Source: Candidatus Eiseniibacteriota bacterium (lineage in GTDB: Bacteria; Eisenbacteria; RBG-16-71-46). Taken from it: a stretch of DNA of 64,000 nucleotides. Shown here one piece after another: positions 2,189 through 32,223 of this stretch. A program made the position numbers and the translations under genes. Where the stretch lies: positions 32,001-96,000 of the forward strand of contig JBBRLX010000012.1 in the NCBI GenBank assembly GCA_038231135.1, given 5' to 3'. The notes below the pieces were generated by a model that was not told the DNA's origin, did no database searches, and worked only from the letters and a program-made list of their open reading frames with translations. Numbering within the stretch: position 1 is the first letter of the stretch; every line of letters begins with the position of its first letter.

Positions 2189-2644
2189 TCACACCCGATG
2201 CATCAGCTGCCGAATCGCCCCCAGGTGATACGCGAGGTGCGCGATCGCGCCCATGCCGGCGCCTTCGTTGACGAACGTCTGCTCCGGCAGCGCCCGCATC
2301 ACTCTCAGGAATTCGATCCGCCCCGCTTCCAGCTCGCGCTGCAGTGCCGCCCATTCCTCGTCGTTGACCTGTTGCGGCGAGAAACTTCCGGGCCAGTCGC
2401 GGGGTCCGCGCACGCCCTGCACCCATTCGGCGCCCACGCGCAGGTGGAAACTCATGTGACGCGCGTGGCCGGCAATGCTGGGATGGCTGTCGAACGACCG
2501 CGAGGCCTGCGCGGCGGTGAGCGAGCGCAGTGTGCTCCGTACGCCCGAGGAGTGATCCAGGTACCGCGTGCCTTCACCGGGGCGCCCGCCGTCGAACGTC
2601 TCCCGGATCAATTCCTCCATCTCGGCGAATACGGCCACGTACAT
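2189..2644 (-). CDS. DinB/YfiT-like four-helix metal-binding protein
   Basis: SIAGHARHM and IAHLAYHLGAIRQ His motifs; GAGG RBS before ATG 2644; 14 nt downstream of the receptor gene. Confidence 0.75.
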   Translation of the reverse strand: MYVAVFAEMEELIRETFDGGRPGEGTRYLDHSSGVRSTLRSLTAAQASRSFDSHPSIAGHARHMSFHLRVGAEWVQGVRGPRDWPGSFSPQQVNDEEWAALQRELEAGRIEFLRVMRALPEQTFVNEGAGMGAIAHLAYHLGAIRQLMHRV

Positions 2645-2658
2645 GGGTTACCTCACAA

Positions 2659-5600
2659 TCAGAATTCCACCCGCACTTCCGCGAGAGCGTTGCGCGTGGC
2701 GGCTGGGATGAACTGCGGGGCGAGGTTCCCCGCCGCATCGTAGTCCATGTAGCCGCCGGTTTCGTAGCGGCGGTCGAACGCATTGAACATCCGCAACGTA
2801 AATTCCACGCGCGCGCCGTTGACCCGCATGCCGTACCCGCCGTTCAGGTCGAGCACGGAATGCGGCGCGATGCTCGCCGCGTCGGTCGCGGTGTTGTCGA
2901 GGAACATGCGGCCGATGCAGCGCCCATCCGCCCCCAAGCGTACTCCGTGGCTCGTCAAGGCTATGGAAAGATTGCCCAACGCGGCGGGAAAGAAGCCGAT
3001 CGTGTTGCCGTCGTAGCGGACCTCGTCGGCGGCGGTGGTGCCGTAGCGCTCCCGGTACTCCACGAAATGGTTGTCGGACAGGGTTGCGTTGGCGTTCACG
3101 GCCAGCGAGATGCCGCCCGCCAGCGCGTGTTGCCCTCGGGCCGCCAGCTCCACGCCCTGGTGCACGGAGCGGGCGGCGTTGCCGAGAATCGGATAGCCGA
3201 GGTCGGTGTCGAACTGCCCCGCGTACACGAGCTCGTCGCGGAACACCATGCGGAACAGGTTGACGGTAAGCGCGGCGCCGGCCGTTTGCCACGCGCCGCC
3301 GAGCTCCCAGTCCTGCACGTGCTCCGGGTGTACGAGCGGAACACGGTACGACTGCCGCAGCGGATCGTGCTGGGCATACAGCGGCACGTTGCCGACGCCC
3401 TCGCCGTCGTACAGATCGCGCAGCGCGGGTTCACGCGCGGCGCTCGACCACGCGGCGAACGCGCTCACGCGCGGCGTTGGGCTCCAGGTCACGCCGAGGC
3501 GCGGCAGCGCGAAGTCGTAGGTCTGATCGAACCGCACACCGTCGAAGCGATCGTCGCGCATCGAGTAGCGCTGATGCCGCCACGCGAGGTCGCCGGTGAC
3601 GCGCACGTCGCTCCGCGCGTTCCATTCCTCGCGAACGTAGGCGCCCGCCGCGAGCGTGCGCGGATGGAAGTCGTAATAGGTGAGGTCGGCCTCGGTCCCG
3701 GGTGGCAGCCCGTTGCCCGATACCACCTGCCCGAAGTGGCGCCCGTCGTGCGCGCGCAACTCGCCGCCCAGCGTGAGTGCCCCGCCCGCGTGCTCCAGCC
3801 GCACGCGCGGCACCCAGCCGTAGTGCTGGTTCTGCACAGTGCGGCGCCGCACGATGTCGGTGCGTTCCAGCAGTCGGCGGCCCTGCGCGTCGGTGACGTA
3901 GGCGCCGGTCGAATCGCGCGCGAAGTAGTCCCCGGGATGTGCAGTGGTGTCGGCGGTGAACCATGGCGCCAGCCGGTAGCCCGCCAGGTCCTGGCCGAAA
4001 CGCTGCTCGTCGTAGTAGCCGCGACCGTCGAACCAGAACAGCGTCTGTGTGAACGCGACCCGGTCGCGCGGCGACCACGAGTGGATCAGCTCGTAGTGCG
4101 GCTCGAAGAAGTGATCGCGCTCGCCGGCGTAGCCGAGCGGATTGAACCTGCGGTCGTCCGACGCGTTACCGGTGAGGCCGCCGTCGAGGTCTTCGCGCGG
4201 GATGCCGAGGTAGGCGAGGTGGGTCTCCTCGGGGCCGCCGTAGAGATTCATGCGCAGCGACTGCCGGCCCTGGAGCCGGCGCACGGACACGGCGTACGAC
4301 CACAGGCGCGTGTCGGACTGGTCGCGATAACCGTTCGTCTCGATACGCGAATAGCGGGCATAGGTGCTCCAGCCGTGCGCGAGCGGGCCCGAGTTCATCT
4401 CGAGCATCAGCCGCCGCGTGTCGTAGGACCCGCCGGACACGCTCGCGGTCATGGCGGGCGTATCCGACATGGGCGCCGTGTCGAGGTTCACGCTGCCGCC
4501 GACCGACGCGGCACCGTACAGCGACGAGCCGACGCCGCGCTGGAGCTGCACCTCGGCGGTCGACGCCAGCAGGTCGGGATGATCGATCCAGTACACCTCG
4601 TGCGACTCGGGGTCGTTGAGCGGCACGCCGTTGATGAGCACGCTGATGCGGCGCTGCGGGAAGCCGCGGATCGAGAGATAGGAGTAGCCGATGCCGTTGC
4701 CGGCATCGGAATAGGCGTAGGCGCCGGGCAGCATCGCGAGCGCCATCGGCGTGTCCTGGCCCCAGTTCGCCGACTTGAGCGCCGCGCGATCGAGCGTGGT
4801 GCGCGCGATCGGCGCCTGCGCGTCGGCGCGCGCGGTGTTCACCACCACCTCGGGCAGCGTGACCACGTGCGACAACGTGTCCGAGGCTGCCGCGCCGCCG
4901 CCCGCGACTGCCGGTGACGTGGAGTCCGCCGCCGCTCGGCTCGCCATGGACGGTGACGCGGAGTCGGCGGCGCGTGCGATGGCGAGCGCCCCGCTCAACG
5001 GTGTCGCGGCCAGCGCGAACGCCACCGCCGCGAGTGCCAGCGGTGCGCCCGACTCCGCGCCCCCGCCGCGACGGCGCTTGTTCACCGCCCAGCCCGCGGC
5101 GAACATCGCGACCGACGCCGCGAGCCCGGGGTAGATCGGCTCCATCCCCAACGGGTACGCCTGCTGCGGATGGAGGTGCTTCGCTACGACCCACGCCAGC
5201 GCGGTCGCGAACGGCACCAGCATCGTGGCGAGCGCCCACGCGCCGCCGCGGCTGCCCACTCCCAGCAGCGCCGAGGCCACCGGCACGAGCAGCGTCGGCG
5301 TGACGACCGACCCGATGTCGTGCCACAGGTCGATCACGCTATGGTTCATCAGCGCCAGACCGGTCGCGAACACGGTCGAGATCGCGAGCCCCAGGCGCGA
5401 GTAGAACGGCACGCGCGAATCGTCGGGGTCGCGGCGCAGGCGCCAGATGAAATCGCGGCCGATCGTGGTCGCAGCGATGAAACCGTAGGAATCGATCGTG
5501 CTCATCACCGTCGCGATCATGCCGAGATAGAAGATCCCCAGCGCCACGTGCGGCAGAGCGACGCGTGCCAGCTCCGGGAACGCATACACCGGGTCCTCGA

Positions 5601-6456
5601 GATGCGGCAGCAGGGCGCGCGCGTACAGGCCGCACGTCGTGGTCATGAAGTCGAACAGCGCCCACCACGCGATCGACCACAGCACGCCGTCGCGCGCCAC
5701 ACGCGGATCGCGCGCGGCGTAGGCGCGCTGCCAGAACCCGGGATCGACGAGCGTCGACAGCGCGATGAAGTACCACACGAAGATCGCCTGCGGCGGGTTG
5801 CCGCCGTTCCAGGTGAAATGCGAGGCGGGCAGTGCACCCGGCGTGAACGGCAACAGCCCGTGACGCGCGACGAGGAACGCCAGCATCATGGCGAAGCCGA
5901 GGAACATCAGCGCGAACTGCACCTGGTCGGTGAACACCACGGTGCGCAGCCCGCCCTTGTCGATGTAGAACATCGACAGCCCCGCAGCCATCACGATGCA
6001 CGGCGCCAGCGCCCAGCCGGTCATCGCCGAGAACAGCGTGCCCAGCACGAGCACGTATGCCGCCGGCGCCGACGACACGAATACCGTGAACGCGCCGAAC
6101 AGCGCGGCGCCGCGCCCGTAGCGGCGGTCGAGCAGGTCGGGCAGCGTGTAGAGCGACGCCACGCGCGCGCGCCGCGCGAACAGCAGCGCGAACAGCAGCG
6201 CACCCACGTAGTACGGCACGCCGAACACGATCCAGTTCGCCACGCCGTAGCGCCACGAATACTCGCCGACGCCCAGGATCCCGCCGTACCACGTGGCCAC
6301 GAGCGTGGCGACGAACGCCGGCAGCGTGACTGCGCGGCCTGCCACCATGTAGTCGAGCGTTCCCGCCCGGCGTCCGCGACCGCGCCACCACACCACGCCG
6401 AGGAACGCGAAATACGCGGCGACCAGACCCCAGTCGAGCATGCTGTTGCTGAACAT
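2659..6456 (-). CDS. Fusion of a sodium:solute symporter (SSS) and a TonB-dependent receptor; putative thiamine or precursor uptake
   Basis: N-terminal ~460 aa carry SSS motifs (DYMVAGR, ATWYGG, TLPDLLDRRYG, GGLRTVVFTDQVQ, FWQRAYAA, ATVMSTIDS). C-terminal ~800 aa carry a TonB box (LPEVVV), plug motifs (LSIRGF, VLINGVPLND, RGVGSSLYGAASVGGSVN) and a terminal VRVEF. No stop between the two parts. AAGGA RBS before ATG 6456. Confidence 0.9.
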   Translation of the reverse strand: MFSNSMLDWGLVAAYFAFLGVVWWRGRGRRAGTLDYMVAGRAVTLPAFVATLVATWYGGILGVGEYSWRYGVANWIVFGVPYYVGALLFALLFARRARVASLYTLPDLLDRRYGRGAALFGAFTVFVSSAPAAYVLVLGTLFSAMTGWALAPCIVMAAGLSMFYIDKGGLRTVVFTDQVQFALMFLGFAMMLAFLVARHGLLPFTPGALPASHFTWNGGNPPQAIFVWYFIALSTLVDPGFWQRAYAARDPRVARDGVLWSIAWWALFDFMTTTCGLYARALLPHLEDPVYAFPELARVALPHVALGIFYLGMIATVMSTIDSYGFIAATTIGRDFIWRLRRDPDDSRVPFYSRLGLAISTVFATGLALMNHSVIDLWHDIGSVVTPTLLVPVASALLGVGSRGGAWALATMLVPFATALAWVVAKHLHPQQAYPLGMEPIYPGLAASVAMFAAGWAVNKRRRGGGAESGAPLALAAVAFALAATPLSGALAIARAADSASPSMASRAAADSTSPAVAGGGAAASDTLSHVVTLPEVVVNTARADAQAPIARTTLDRAALKSANWGQDTPMALAMLPGAYAYSDAGNGIGYSYLSIRGFPQRRISVLINGVPLNDPESHEVYWIDHPDLLASTAEVQLQRGVGSSLYGAASVGGSVNLDTAPMSDTPAMTASVSGGSYDTRRLMLEMNSGPLAHGWSTYARYSRIETNGYRDQSDTRLWSYAVSVRRLQGRQSLRMNLYGGPEETHLAYLGIPREDLDGGLTGNASDDRRFNPLGYAGERDHFFEPHYELIHSWSPRDRVAFTQTLFWFDGRGYYDEQRFGQDLAGYRLAPWFTADTTAHPGDYFARDSTGAYVTDAQGRRLLERTDIVRRRTVQNQHYGWVPRVRLEHAGGALTLGGELRAHDGRHFGQVVSGNGLPPGTEADLTYYDFHPRTLAAGAYVREEWNARSDVRVTGDLAWRHQRYSMRDDRFDGVRFDQTYDFALPRLGVTWSPTPRVSAFAAWSSAAREPALRDLYDGEGVGNVPLYAQHDPLRQSYRVPLVHPEHVQDWELGGAWQTAGAALTVNLFRMVFRDELVYAGQFDTDLGYPILGNAARSVHQGVELAARGQHALAGGISLAVNANATLSDNHFVEYRERYGTTAADEVRYDGNTIGFFPAALGNLSIALTSHGVRLGADGRCIGRMFLDNTATDAASIAPHSVLDLNGGYGMRVNGARVEFTLRMFNAFDRRYETGGYMDYDAAGNLAPQFIPAATRNALAEVRVEF

Positions 6457-6593
6457 GAGCGATCCTTGCGGGAGCGTCTCGTGCGGGAGCGCCGAAGCTC
6501 GATCCGCGTGCCGCGGCGCGTGAGACGCGCCCGCAACGAGACGCCGTCCACGCAGGGACGGCATGAAAACACAGCGGAGAGCTCGTCGGTTTT

Positions 6594-6678
6594 CGCCGTT
6601 TCCCTACGCTGGCTTTATCCAGTTCAGGTTCGAAGGGTGTGCTCTCAGGCCGGCACTTCGCCGACCACCCCTAACGAC
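6594..6678 (-). ncRNA. TPP (thiamine pyrophosphate) riboswitch
   Basis: Minus strand reads CGTCGTTAGGGGTG...CTGAGAGCACACCCTTCGAACCTGAACTGGATAAAGCCAGCGTAGGGAAACGGCG, with the THI-box elements GGGG, CTGAGA, ACCCT, GAACCTGA, GGATAA, CCAGCGTAGGGAA and a P1 helix CGTCGTT/AACGGCG. Confidence 0.93.
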
Positions 6679-6791
6679 GCGTGTTCGCCGTGGAGGCGAA
6701 CGGGCGGCAGCATGCGCTCACGGAGGGATGTGGCGCAAGTCGGCGCGGGATCATCATTGCCGCCGAGGCCCCCGTCGCCTACGGTCCCGCA

Positions 6792-8354
6792 ATGCCGGTC
6801 GCCGACTCGCACCCGCCTGCCTCGCCGCTCGCCGCGCCGCCCCGCACGTACACGCTGCTCCTGACGCTCCTCGGCCTCGCGACACTCGCGCTCCATCTCG
6901 CGAACGCCACCCGCTACGGCTGGTTCCGGGACGAGTTCTATTACCTCATGTGCGGGCGGCGACTCGCCTGGGGTTATGTCGATCATCCGCCGGTCATCGC
7001 GGCGATCGCCGCGTTCACCGAGCGCGTGCTCGGCGGCTCGATCGCCGCCGTGCGACTGCCGGTGGCGCTCGCGCACGCATTGCTGGTCGTGGTCGCCGGG
7101 CTGATGGCGCGCCAGTTCGGCGGTGGCCGCGGGGCGCAGGTGCTGGCCGCGCTCGCGGTGCTGGCGGGGCCGGTCTATCTGGGCGGCGCATCGACGCTCA
7201 ACATGAATCCCATCGACCAGCTGCTGTGGAGCCTGTGCCTGCTCCTGATGGTGCGCGCGTTCGCGACGGACCGTTCGCCGAATTGGCTGCTGTTCGGCCT
7301 GATCGCGGGCATCGGGCTCATGACCAAGCACTCGACGGCGTTCTTTCTCGCCGCCACGCTCGCCGGCATCGTGGTCTCGCCGCAACGCCGGCTGTTGTTC
7401 CGGCGCGGGCCGTGGATGGCGGCTGCGGTCGCGGCGCTCGTCGTGTCGCCGAATATCTACTGGGAAATCCGGCAGCACTGGCCCACGCTCGAGTTCCTGC
7501 GCAACGCGTCGGCACATAAGAACTATGCCGCGTCGCCGCTCGAGTTTCTTTCGGCTCAGGCGCTGATCATCGGGCCGCTCAGCGTGCCGCTCGTGGTCGC
7601 CGGCGTGATCTGGCTGCTGGTGGCGTCGGGGGCGCGGGTGTTCCGCGCGATCGGCTGGGGGTTCGTCGCGATCTTCGCGTTGCTGTTCGCGATGAAGGCC
7701 AAGCACTACTACATGGCGCCGGCCTATCCGGTGGTGTTCGCCGCGGGCGCGGTGGCGCTCGAGCGCATGACGCGGCGACCGATGCTGCGCTGGCTGCTGC
7801 CGGCCTACGCGGTGCTCGTGGTCGCCGGCGGCGTGGCACTCGTTCCGTTCACCGTTCCCCTGCTGTCGCCGCAAGCGATCCACGACTACGCGATGTCGCT
7901 CGGTCTGCGTGAACCGCAGACCGAGCGACATCGCCCCGCGCGCCTGCCACAGACGTTCGCCGACATGTTCGGCTGGGAGGAGCTGGCGGCGACCGTGGGC
8001 CGCGTGTACCACGCGCTGCCCGATTCCGAGCGCCGTCACTGCGCGGTGTTCGCGAGCAACTACGGCGAGGCGGGCGCGCTCGAATGGTTCGGGCCGCGGT
8101 ACGGCCTGCCGCGGATCGTCAGCGGCCACAACAACTACTTTCTGTGGGGACCGCCAGACTCGCTGACGAATGTCGTGATTACGGTGGGGGAGGATTCGAG
8201 CGACGTCGCGAAATCATTGTTCAGCGTGACGCGGGCCGCGACGTTCAGCCATCCATGGAACATGCCCTATGAGAGCGATCTGCCCATCCTGGTCGCGCGC
8301 CGGATGCGCGCGCCGTGGCGCGTGATCTGGCCGCAGACGAAGAAGTACATCTGA
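6792..8354 (+). CDS. ArnT/PMT-like (GT39/GT83) integral membrane glycosyltransferase
   Basis: RYGWFRDEFYY, LAWGYVDHPP, GLMTKHS, KHYYMAPAYP, ADMFGWEE, SGHNNYFLWGP; multiple TM helices. Confidence 0.85.
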   Translation: MPVADSHPPASPLAAPPRTYTLLLTLLGLATLALHLANATRYGWFRDEFYYLMCGRRLAWGYVDHPPVIAAIAAFTERVLGGSIAAVRLPVALAHALLVVVAGLMARQFGGGRGAQVLAALAVLAGPVYLGGASTLNMNPIDQLLWSLCLLLMVRAFATDRSPNWLLFGLIAGIGLMTKHSTAFFLAATLAGIVVSPQRRLLFRRGPWMAAAVAALVVSPNIYWEIRQHWPTLEFLRNASAHKNYAASPLEFLSAQALIIGPLSVPLVVAGVIWLLVASGARVFRAIGWGFVAIFALLFAMKAKHYYMAPAYPVVFAAGAVALERMTRRPMLRWLLPAYAVLVVAGGVALVPFTVPLLSPQAIHDYAMSLGLREPQTERHRPARLPQTFADMFGWEELAATVGRVYHALPDSERRHCAVFASNYGEAGALEWFGPRYGLPRIVSGHNNYFLWGPPDSLTNVVITVGEDSSDVAKSLFSVTRAATFSHPWNMPYESDLPILVARRMRAPWRVIWPQTKKYI

Positions 8355-8365
8355 GTTCGAAACGC

Positions 8366-8395
8366 GAACGGGCCCCACAAATGCAGGGCCCGTTC
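8366..8395 (+). terminator. Stem-loop downstream of the glycosyltransferase (possible terminator)
   Basis: GAACGGGCCC...GGGCCCGTTC 10-bp inverted repeat 11 nt after the stop; no clear U-tract. Confidence 0.45.
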
Positions 8396-8679
8396 CGATG
8401 CTCGGCCGGCACAGGGTAGCCGGCCGTGGTTCAGGCTCCGCGACTCCCCCTTGACGCCCGGAACCCCTCCCACACCTTAGGCTACGGATCGAGCGCTCCC
8501 GACGGATGAGCGATCGATTCGACAGCAGACGCCCTTGTACCGCGCCGCTTCCGGGCGTAACGTCCGGCCGCCGCGTCTCGGTACGGGCCGCCGTGCGCCT
8601 CGCGTTACGAGGCCGGACACCGTCGCCAGGCGCCGGCGGGCTCGTCCAATCGCCCGCCCCGCACGTAGATCCATTGAAC

Positions 8680-9258
8680 ATGAGCGGCAACGAGGTTCAT
8701 GTGGCCCAGCAAGAACTGGACTTCCAGTGCCTGCAACGCACGCAGGCCGGAGACAGCCGGTCGTTGAGCGAGCTCTACGACCGGTATACGCCACTGCTAT
8801 ACCCGGTGGCGCTCCGGATCCTGCGCAGCCCGGCGGATGCCGAGGATGCGGTGCAGGATGCTTGGCTGCAGGTGTGGAAGCGGTCGGCGAGCTACGACCC
8901 GCGGCGCGGAACCGTCGCGGCCTGGCTGCTCACCGTGGTTCGCACCCGGGCGCTCGATCGATATCGCAGCATGGCATCGCGCAATCGAGCCGAGTCCCGC
9001 GTGGACCCGGAGCCGGTGACTCCCCCTGAAGATCCGACGAGTCAGGCGAGCCAGGTGCAGTTGAGTGCACGGGTTCGATCCGCCATGGCGTCGCTGGCTC
9101 CCCAGCAGCGCCAGGTGCTCGAAATCGCCTACTTCGAAGGGCTGTCGCAGAGCGAGATCGCGGAACGATTGAGCGCGCCGCTCGGCACGGTGAAATCGTG
9201 GACCCGGCAGGGCCTGATGCGCCTGCGGGAGCTGCTGCCTCAGGAGGAGTGGGTGTGA
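8680..9258 (+). CDS. ECF RNA polymerase sigma-70 factor (SigK-like)
   Basis: LYDRY, AEDAVQDAWLQVW, YDPRRGTVAAWL, LAPQQRQVLEIAYFEGLSQSEIAERLSAPLGTVKSW. Alternative start GTG 8701 has a GAGG RBS. Confidence 0.92.
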   Translation: MSGNEVHVAQQELDFQCLQRTQAGDSRSLSELYDRYTPLLYPVALRILRSPADAEDAVQDAWLQVWKRSASYDPRRGTVAAWLLTVVRTRALDRYRSMASRNRAESRVDPEPVTPPEDPTSQASQVQLSARVRSAMASLAPQQRQVLEIAYFEGLSQSEIAERLSAPLGTVKSWTRQGLMRLRELLPQEEWV

Positions 9259-10199
9259 GCGACCATCGTCCGGAATACATCGACCTGTGCGCCGCCTGGG
9301 CGCTGGGCTGCCTCGATCAGGGCGACGTGGTCCTGCTCGACGAGCACCTGGCGCAGGGTTGCGCCGAGTGCGGGACGGCGATGGCCGAGTTCTCCGCCGC
9401 CACCGTGCTGGTCGCCGCGTCGGCGCAGCGCGCGCCCGCGTCACCCGCACTTCGCGAACGCGTGATGGCGGCGGCCGTGCAGGCGGCCGGGCCCGCCGCC
9501 ATCGCGGCCGCCGCCATCGCTCCGGTCGCCGGGGCGGCGACGCCGGCCGCGCGACCGGGAGTGGCGCCGGGTTCCGCGCCGCGTGCGGCGCCCCCCGTGA
9601 CCGGCGGCGGCGCGACTGCCGGCGGGCGCGATGGTGCTCGCGACGCCGGCCCGGCGCGGGTGATCGAATTCCGGCAGCGCCCGGCGTGGACGATGTGGGT
9701 GCCGCTGGCCGCGGCGGCGGCGCTCGCGATCGCCTCGGGCGTGCTGTGGATGCGCGTCCACAAGCTCGATTCCGACCTGGCGGCGAGCAACACGGAGATC
9801 GCGCAGTTGCAGCGAACGGCCGAAGAGGGCGACAAGTGGCTGGCGGTGCTGCACTCGGCCGACGCGCGCGTGTCGGTACTCGAGCCGACGACCGACGGCG
9901 ACGCGCGCCTGCGTGCCCGCGCCACCTATGACCCGGCCACGAAGCGGGCCGTGATCGTATTCGAGAACTTCACGAAGCCGACGAATCGCGACTACCAGTT
10001 GTGGGTGATCCGTGACGGCGCGCCGGCGAGCCTCGGCGTCGTGCACGCCGACGACCAGGGCCGCGCGGTGCTGGAGCTCGAAGGTGTCGGCGATTCGTTC
10101 GCGCTGAGCGCGTTCGCCGTATCGCTCGAGCCCGAGGGCGGCTCTCCGAATCCCACGCCGTCCGGACCCGTCGTGATGCTCGGGAAGCTGAGCGGATGA
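9255..10199 (+). CDS. RskA-like anti-sigma factor
   Basis: GTGA overlap with the sigma stop; zinc-finger-like HLAQGCAEC; one TM helix; C-terminal DYQLW...PASLG...FAVSLEP.GGSP.PSG domain. Confidence 0.88.
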   Translation: MSDHRPEYIDLCAAWALGCLDQGDVVLLDEHLAQGCAECGTAMAEFSAATVLVAASAQRAPASPALRERVMAAAVQAAGPAAIAAAAIAPVAGAATPAARPGVAPGSAPRAAPPVTGGGATAGGRDGARDAGPARVIEFRQRPAWTMWVPLAAAAALAIASGVLWMRVHKLDSDLAASNTEIAQLQRTAEEGDKWLAVLHSADARVSVLEPTTDGDARLRARATYDPATKRAVIVFENFTKPTNRDYQLWVIRDGAPASLGVVHADDQGRAVLELEGVGDSFALSAFAVSLEPEGGSPNPTPSGPVVMLGKLSG

Positions 10200-31800: not shown

Positions 31801-32223
31801 ATGATGAGACTCAAGAAGTGGCATGGCCTGCTCGTGGTGGTTGTCAGTCTCGCGGTGTTCGGTTGTGCCGCGGGCACCATGCAGATGGGCAGCAACTCGG
31901 AGATTCCCGGCGCCGCCGGGGCCGCGAAGCTGCACCGCACCAAGAACGGCAATACCCAGATCACGCTGAGCGTGAAGCACCTCGCGCCGCCCGACAAGGT
32001 TACGACCGGGACTTCGGTGTACGTCGTGTGGGTGCAGGGTCTCGAGTCCGGCGCCCAGGCACAGAACATGGGTGCCCTGCGGGTGAACGACAACCTGACC
32101 GGCACCATGGAGGCCGTGACACCCCTCCACGGCTTCGAGCTGTTCCTCACCGCGGAGGCGGCGCAGACCGTCACCTATCCGTCCGGCAATCATCTGCTGC
32201 CTCTGCACTACTCGGGGTCGTGA
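31801..32223 (+). CDS. Lipoprotein with RskA-C-like domain
   Basis: MMRLKK followed by a hydrophobic stretch and lipobox VFGC; YVVWVQ...NMGAL...FELFLTAE...PSG. Confidence 0.7.
   Translation: MMRLKKWHGLLVVVVSLAVFGCAAGTMQMGSNSEIPGAAGAAKLHRTKNGNTQITLSVKHLAPPDKVTTGTSVYVVWVQGLESGAQAQNMGALRVNDNLTGTMEAVTPLHGFELFLTAEAAQTVTYPSGNHLLPLHYSGS

Follow-up and report, generated by a model that had tools for sequence, protein, structure and literature searches.

A TPP riboswitch-associated fusion of an SSS symporter and a TonB-dependent receptor in Candidatus Eisenbacteria, and its probable processing at an internal signal peptide

The 64,000-nucleotide stretch of DNA analyzed here (the window; positions 32,001 to 96,000 of contig JBBRLX010000012.1, assembly GCA_038231135.1) belongs to a genome of Candidatus Eiseniibacteriota, G000. 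It contains one stop-free open reading frame (ORF) of 1265 codons, P0001, which encodes in a single chain a complete SSS-family symporter, a plug domain and a TonB-dependent β-barrel. Translation and Pfam analysis bore out this architecture, which had been claimed by the original prediction. The SSF domain covered residues 36-349 (84.8 bits, curated cut-off 22.8), and Plug as well as the barrel domain (residues 758-1218) also scored above their cut-offs. A thiamine pyrophosphate (TPP) riboswitch aptamer lies upstream on the coding strand, as predicted, with a score above the gathering threshold of 54.3 bits, but its distance to the ATG is 127 nt and not about 140 nt. It was the single TPP riboswitch match in G000, which is 93% complete, and no promoter or terminator-like site was found between it and the ATG. 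A scan of 20 related loci, several with short upstream flanks, detected the riboswitch in 11 of them. The features are listed in Table 1.

Table 1. Features of the fused gene and its leader; positions refer to the window.
Feature	Position	Strand	Basis
TPP riboswitch aptamer	6584..6682	-	Rfam RF00059, 66.7 bits, E 6.6e-11
Fused ORF P0001, 1265 aa	2659..6456	-	translation, Pfam, contigs of other runs
SSS-family symporter, residues 1-462, 13 membrane helices	5071..6456	-	Pfam SSF, AlphaFold model
Basic cluster K460-R463: symporter cytoplasmic tail, likely n-region of internal signal	5068..5079	-	sequence
Hydrophobic helix L473-I493, h-region of former receptor signal peptide	4978..5040	-	hydropathy, model
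A494-R495-A496, predicted cleavage site for signal peptidase I, after 496	4969..4977	-	sequence, AXA rule
Ser/Ala/Pro-rich segment A497-S525, predicted mature receptor N-terminus	4882..4968	-	sequence
Conserved DTL..VV.LPEVVV segment, candidate TonB box, residues 526-541	4834..4881	-	conservation
Plug domain, residues 547-654	4495..4818	-	Pfam PF07715
TonB-dependent β-barrel, last residue Phe1265	2662..4455	-	Pfam PF00593, model

For the symporter half, the SSS family model TIGR00813 gave 100.5 bits, below its cut-off of 184, and the protein represents a divergent SSS subfamily. All NCBIfam models for TonB-dependent receptors were likewise below cut-off for P0001. In the AlphaFold model of residues 1-585 (pTM 0.76) 13 membrane helices were counted, the last of which ends at residue 462, and residues 471-497 form a helix of low confidence. 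The best fold matches of the symporter model were CHT1, SGLT2, SMCT1 and NIS (Foldseek; CHT1 E 2.4e-13, TM 0.65-0.75), and the model agrees with an SGLT/CHT-type fold with 13-14 helices. The receptor half was modelled as plug plus barrel (pLDDT 88, pTM 0.87), with PqqU/YncD, Fiu, FhuA and FecA as closest structures (TM 0.72-0.74). It ends in EVRVEF, a C-terminal aromatic β-signal, and the DTL..VV.LPEVVV segment, a candidate TonB box, is conserved in fused as well as in split receptors, i.e., those encoded by separate genes. PDB sequence searches and an Atlas search (homologue P0007, best score 0.88) returned generic receptor and SSS matches only, and no substrate.

The junction sequence was found as originally quoted, and contigs of other sequencing runs were used to verify it. 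Contigs of X1 and X2 cover positions 2400-6900 unbroken with 0 differences and 0 gaps; these runs are possibly the source of the DNA, so that they do not count as independent. From X6, which is a soil run and belongs to another study, a contig of 325 nt covers positions 4826-5149 with 39 substitutions and 0 gaps. The 34 of these 39 substitutions that were listed affect 30 codons, 17 synonymously and 13 nonsynonymously, and do not introduce a stop. Synonymous changes were seen at R461, R462, A492, A494 and A497, and the changes within the helix all led to hydrophobic residues, except for L473P at the helix edge. Runs X3, X4, X5 and X12 contained short pieces only, which did not bridge the junction. 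An indel restoring a stop at the junction, named beforehand as evidence against a fusion, was present in none of the contigs of X1, X2 and X6.

The named relatives are Candidatus Eisenbacteria. The symporter was present in 94 of 102 genomes of the order, and its frame continues through the receptor in three of these 94 (G000, G015 and G006). A fourth long frame, in G149, proved to be split, and G153 and G122 were found to be split as well. G014 (locus L003) is also split, by one TAG, and its receptor has a Shine-Dalgarno (SD) sequence of its own; symporter and receptor share one frame, while SD and ATG are out of frame. This arrangement probably reflects an indel error in the n-region of the signal, and L003 is the sister of the fused P0021. 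The 190 loci, not dereplicated, comprised 150 split, seven fused and 15 receptor-first loci and 18 without one of the partners; among metagenome loci, three were fused among the 73 scorable of 80. The proposed search for the combined SSF, Plug and barrel architecture was run on long proteins only and revealed 10 clusters, including that of the window (8000 candidates scored per search), and four of them contain more than one distinct fused member. The original prediction had named two separate genes in all close relatives as evidence against it. Most relatives are indeed split, yet fusions recur in 11 lineages. The fusion is thus a recurrent variant, not the family norm. Taken alone, a single case of two genes joined in frame might be accidental where the genome is GC-rich; because the fusion recurs and is conserved in relatives, the join in the window is more than that. 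Two further types of long proteins were seen. P0009 (916 aa) carries a symporter of the same subfamily fused to an alpha/beta hydrolase via a basic, hydrophobic, LAIGC segment, presumably lipobox-like, and this end of the symporter may tolerate fusion to whatever exported protein is encoded next to it. P0022 and P0023 are distantly related SSF proteins; each is about 925 aa long, and the second half of each carries no annotation.

For comparative analyses 11 short or frameshifted rows were removed, and 155 rows were dereplicated at 95% to 117 rows, 11 of them fused; fused proteins had been deliberately sought, so that this number is not a frequency. The overlap of receptor start and symporter stop explains where the extra helix belongs. 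In 136 of the 150 split loci the two genes overlap as NTGA, and the receptors begin there with a signal peptide at the position of the window's extra helix, in line with the original view of this helix as an internal signal peptide. The best 10-residue hydropathy of the window helix, 2.74, equals the median of 96 split signal peptides. The h-region was within the 5-95% range of the same 96 in all 11 fused linkers, and in all 11 two to five basic residues precede the hydrophobic stretch. None of 731 off-frame control segments reached the lowest fused hydropathy value, and shuffle tests on single linkers gave p values from 0.004 to 0.24. AxA was present in 7/11 fused versus 79/96 split sequences, and the Met before the helix was missing in six of the 11 fused ones. 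The distance from helix to DTL was 10-43 residues (median 17) in fused and 5-67 (median 16) in split receptors; because these distances are alike, the fusion added no spacer. A variable segment like the Ser/Ala/Pro-rich A497-S525 is also carried by split receptors. The extra helix is homologous to these signal peptides of the split loci: it is the receptor's own former signal peptide. Within the linker of the window (4912-4968) an ADSASP / ADSTSP repeat, 13 residues apart, was noticed, which yields a second AxA-like site at A508-A510; residue 510 is Lys in the X6 relative.

P0001 departs from the TonB-dependent transporters, which carry a cleavable signal peptide at the N-terminus, in that its signal-like segment is at residues 460-496. 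Sequence and model place this basic, hydrophobic, AXA segment internally, in a presumed N-in/C-out position. Because of the 13 helices and the basic tail, the symporter C-terminus should be cytoplasmic according to the positive-inside rule, and helix 14 would point the receptor outward. Helix 14 as a native SSS helix was rejected, since in split symporters the distance between helix 13 and the stop is 5-23 codons. GTG V458 as the old receptor start was also dropped: the ATG of the clade is found some eight codons further on, and Val is frequent at this position.

Conserved sites were kept equally by fused and split barrels (p 0.49; 79 complete loci), and all 11 fused barrels terminate in Phe or Trp. 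The dN/dS values were 0.24-0.33 in pairs with the window and 0.25-0.51 in three split-split pairs. Overall, the fusion is real and recurrent, and it is under purifying selection. Signal peptidase I was matched twice in G000, and TonB_C nine times. The genome also has 13 other TonB-dependent receptor matches, and more than two hydrophobic segments were found in none of these 13 frames.

An IQ-TREE analysis of 56 rows, i.e., all 11 fused and 45 hand-chosen split ones, with the bootstrap not fully settled, required eight changes of the split/fused state for the 11 fused lineages. Fused forms are mostly single tips, and one ancestral fusion was rejected, as a single all-fused clade had a p value of 6e-32 (AU test, 28 rows). 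P0003, P0004 and P0005 form an all-fused clade with about 71% identity (support 99/98), which points to long persistence of the fusion. The window clusters with the fused L032 and L031 and the split L004 (support 100/99), and this clade would reflect either a single gain followed by reversion or more than one gain. At the overlap, one base is inserted in L031 relative to the split L004, which shows a route to fusion. A good SD and ATG have been retained in the fused L031 (-7.6 kcal/mol) and L032/L033 (-8.0 kcal/mol), and internal SD and ATG have been lost in the window and L002. The median SD score of split receptors was -8.1 kcal/mol (n=97), compared with -2.6 for GTG V458 and -6.1 for CTG L473 of the window and -4.7 for the symporter's own start.

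The reverse gene order was also analyzed. In 37 of 41 genomes of other families the receptor gene comes first and adjoins that of the symporter, and 0/37 were fused. A profile from 14 receptor-first symporters gave 10 long matches, none of which was a reverse-order fusion; its long-protein matches were symporter-first fusions and one hydrolase fusion only. The absence of reverse-order fusions is what would be expected if the signal must be internal and the C-terminal Phe must be free, although the numbers are small. In the receptor-first loci L173, L176-L179 and L181-L183 the receptor stop overlaps the first codon of the symporter frame as CTGA, so that CTG may serve as start codon in coupled translation, and a TTGA overlap was seen in L030 and L187.

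We propose that, in an operon with translational coupling, one base inserted into the ATGA overlap would join both frames, and that the internal ribosome-binding site and ATG would survive at first and decay later. This Eisenbacteria polyprotein may well have had at least seven origins from ATGA-coupled operons by one-base slips, only with the receptor second, and would have become obligatory as the internal start decayed, so that the barrel is built as the tail of an inner-membrane transporter and released by signal peptidase I; on balance, we favour this scenario.

The substrate was approached via the thiamine genes. ThiC was found in one of the 102 genomes of the order. Thiamine pyrophosphokinase (TPK) was present in 12 of 13 genomes of two sister families, several times adjoining the receptor gene, and in 0 of 88 genomes of the window's family plus G000. 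G000 yielded no match for ThiC, ThiE, TPK or ThiB, any ThiG or ThiK match stayed below cut-off, and ThiL is present. In view of these results, thiamine uptake by the fused protein is likely; thiamine, thiamine monophosphate or TPP may be imported. The presence of ThiL without TPK or ThiK above cut-off would fit a thiamine kinase of a new kind or import of thiamine that is already phosphorylated.

The following mechanism is proposed for the window protein. The 13 symporter helices would end in the cytoplasm, helix 14 would insert N-in/C-out like a signal peptide, and SecYEG would thread the receptor into the periplasm. Signal peptidase I would then cleave after Ala496 and free the receptor for chaperones, the β-barrel assembly machinery (BAM) would take it via its C-terminal Phe, and the helix stub would stay attached to the symporter. 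The outcome, an inner-membrane carrier and a BAM-ready receptor of the outer membrane, with thiamine or one of its phosphorylated forms as their likely substrate, is considered probable.

Several observations weigh against this proposal. The small-residue site rule is lenient, and 96/96 split sequences pass it. The window linker is the longest of the 11 fused ones, with 43 residues between its best hydrophobic window and DTL compared with a split 95th percentile of 28.5. P0004, P0005, P0006, P0008, P0010 and P0021 are known as proteins only, and internal GTG or TTG starts are possible in them. Fused symporters were lower in conservation (p 0.0008; 79 complete loci); the difference was gone in comparison with 22 split rows without close neighbour (p 0.31). 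The reverse-order control is weak, as 3/94 versus 0/37 is not significant alone. Most relatives are split, including G001 inside the window's own clade, and any benefit of the fusion is, thus, hypothetical. A 1:1 stoichiometry need not be the benefit either, because the ATGA overlap already couples translation. G000 has no thiamine kinase or pyrophosphokinase match, so that the substrate may be thiamine or a phosphorylated form. Lastly, a start at GTG V458, which is in frame, would yield a signal peptide of normal appearance (MNKRRR...), this codon is unchanged among the listed X6 differences, and the SD score is not decisive, with merely -4.7 at the symporter's own start.

These last points bear on internal initiation at GTG V458 or CTG L473, by which most of the receptor would be made, with the fusion as tolerated read-through and the two proteins in effect separate. 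The SD plus in-frame ATG kept in L031 and L032/L033, the Met kept in P0008, P0010 and P0007, the GGAG 12 nt upstream of CTG L473 and the CTG at the stop overlap of several reverse-order loci are in accord with it. However, the score of V458 is like that of 42% of ordinary internal NTG codons, and Val occurs at this position in split symporters, too. E468G and L473P abolish GGAG and CTG in the X6 relative, and L002 has no ATG, GTG or TTG before the helix. Even with internal initiation each symporter chain would carry a barrel and need processing or degradation. Internal initiation as the main source of the receptor is considered improbable.

A slightly harmful mutation, with the receptor half stuck or degraded and thiamine entering via porins, is very unlikely. 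Fused forms are a minority and mostly single tips, and in a Bacteroides study the loss of the outer-membrane transporter alone, with biosynthesis intact, had no growth effect (PMC5613172). The same study, however, reports that OMthi mutants devoid of biosynthesis lost in competition at 0-10 nM thiamine (PMC5613172), and ThiC was found in one genome of the order, as described above. Moreover, 740 codons have remained without stop or frameshift, conservation and dN/dS are like those of split forms, and the fusion persists over 27-29% protein divergence.

Similarly little credit can be given to the original alternative of an uncleaved chain that spans the periplasm and keeps barrel and symporter tied together. 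The periplasm of E. coli is roughly 20 nm wide, a value that may not hold for this phylum. The linker of the window, with its exceptional length among the fused forms and its low-confidence or disordered model, would suit a tether, but helix and DTL are 10-28 residues apart in the other fusions (median 17, compared with 16 in split receptors), the fusion brought in no domain that could span the periplasm, and cleavage-site motifs were kept. A sequencing or assembly error is hardly conceivable and already largely refuted for the window: one-base indels at the overlap do create fusions, a stretch of A is present at this place in L032/L033, frameshifts are present in long-read genomes of the set, and some single-record fusions may be errors, but X1 and X2 are identical base for base, the diverged X6 relative is gap-free across the junction, the window sequence restores no hidden ATGA, and clusters 2, 4, 8 and 10 contain several distinct fused members from differing sources.

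Directly 3' of the fused gene, on the same strand, an ORF of 151 aa (2189-2644, -) had no Pfam or NCBIfam match. Divergently oriented (6681-10199, +) are genes for a PMT_2 glycosyltransferase and for a pair of an extracytoplasmic function (ECF) sigma factor and an RskA-type anti-sigma factor, which are ordinary.

If the proposed processing is true, a 740-residue barrel follows a 13-helix protein through the translocon, which raises the question how co-translational insertion hands over to the export of a long unfolded barrel and then to BAM. A ratchet from operon to polyprotein would have been caught at several stages, and the split-to-fused series would be a clear case of polyprotein origin. 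The natural series, i.e., split, fused with the start kept, and fused with the start lost, offers ready constructs for tests in E. coli. In practice, such genes are annotated as just one of their two halves. For a group that is uncultured and auxotrophic, the locus also identifies the way by which vitamin B1 is likely acquired.

As the original prediction had stated, no characterized example came to light: in the literature searched, to which journals on subscription and the supplements of preprints did not belong, a fusion between a transporter of the inner membrane and a TonB-dependent receptor was not found in any paper. Two membrane proteins from one gene are known from the cytochrome b/c1 precursor FbcH of Bradyrhizobium, which is cut at an internal signal-like spacer. 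In contrast to the case proposed here, both products of FbcH stay in one inner-membrane complex, and neither is a BAM substrate. An outer-membrane product of such polyprotein processing was not found in print.

Parts of the proposal have precedents. In Staphylococcus aureus, the polytopic LtaS is cut from its exported domain by the signal peptidase SpsB (PMC12260438). As proposed for the window, a type I signal peptidase severs a polytopic protein from an exported domain; in contrast, the organism is monoderm, cleavage inactivates one enzyme, and no second transporter or β-barrel is released. For outer-membrane proteins, entry into Sec via an N-terminal signal peptide is described, and the AXA cleavage rule is stated for their precursors (PMC13067283). 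OMthi (BT2390) and PnuT of Bacteroides thetaiotaomicron are genetically tested two-membrane thiamine transporters under TPP riboswitch control (PMC5613172). They are similar by role, but the inner carrier is PnuT and the genes are separate, whereas the window encodes an SSS protein in a fusion. A close counterpart is Cabys_3975-3977 of Caldithrix abyssi, with a TPP riboswitch, a TonB-dependent receptor, a sodium-solute symporter as well as a TPK, for which thiamine uptake in an auxotroph was predicted (PMC5317091). There the genes are separate, the receptor is first and TPK is present, while in the window the symporter is first, the gene is fused and no TPK was found; sister families of the window's family resemble Caldithrix in having TPK beside the receptor gene. 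The split operon of riboswitch, receptor and SSS symporter is, thus, already in print with Caldithrix, and the fusion of the SSS symporter in a thiamine context, together with the visible stages of its origin, is new.

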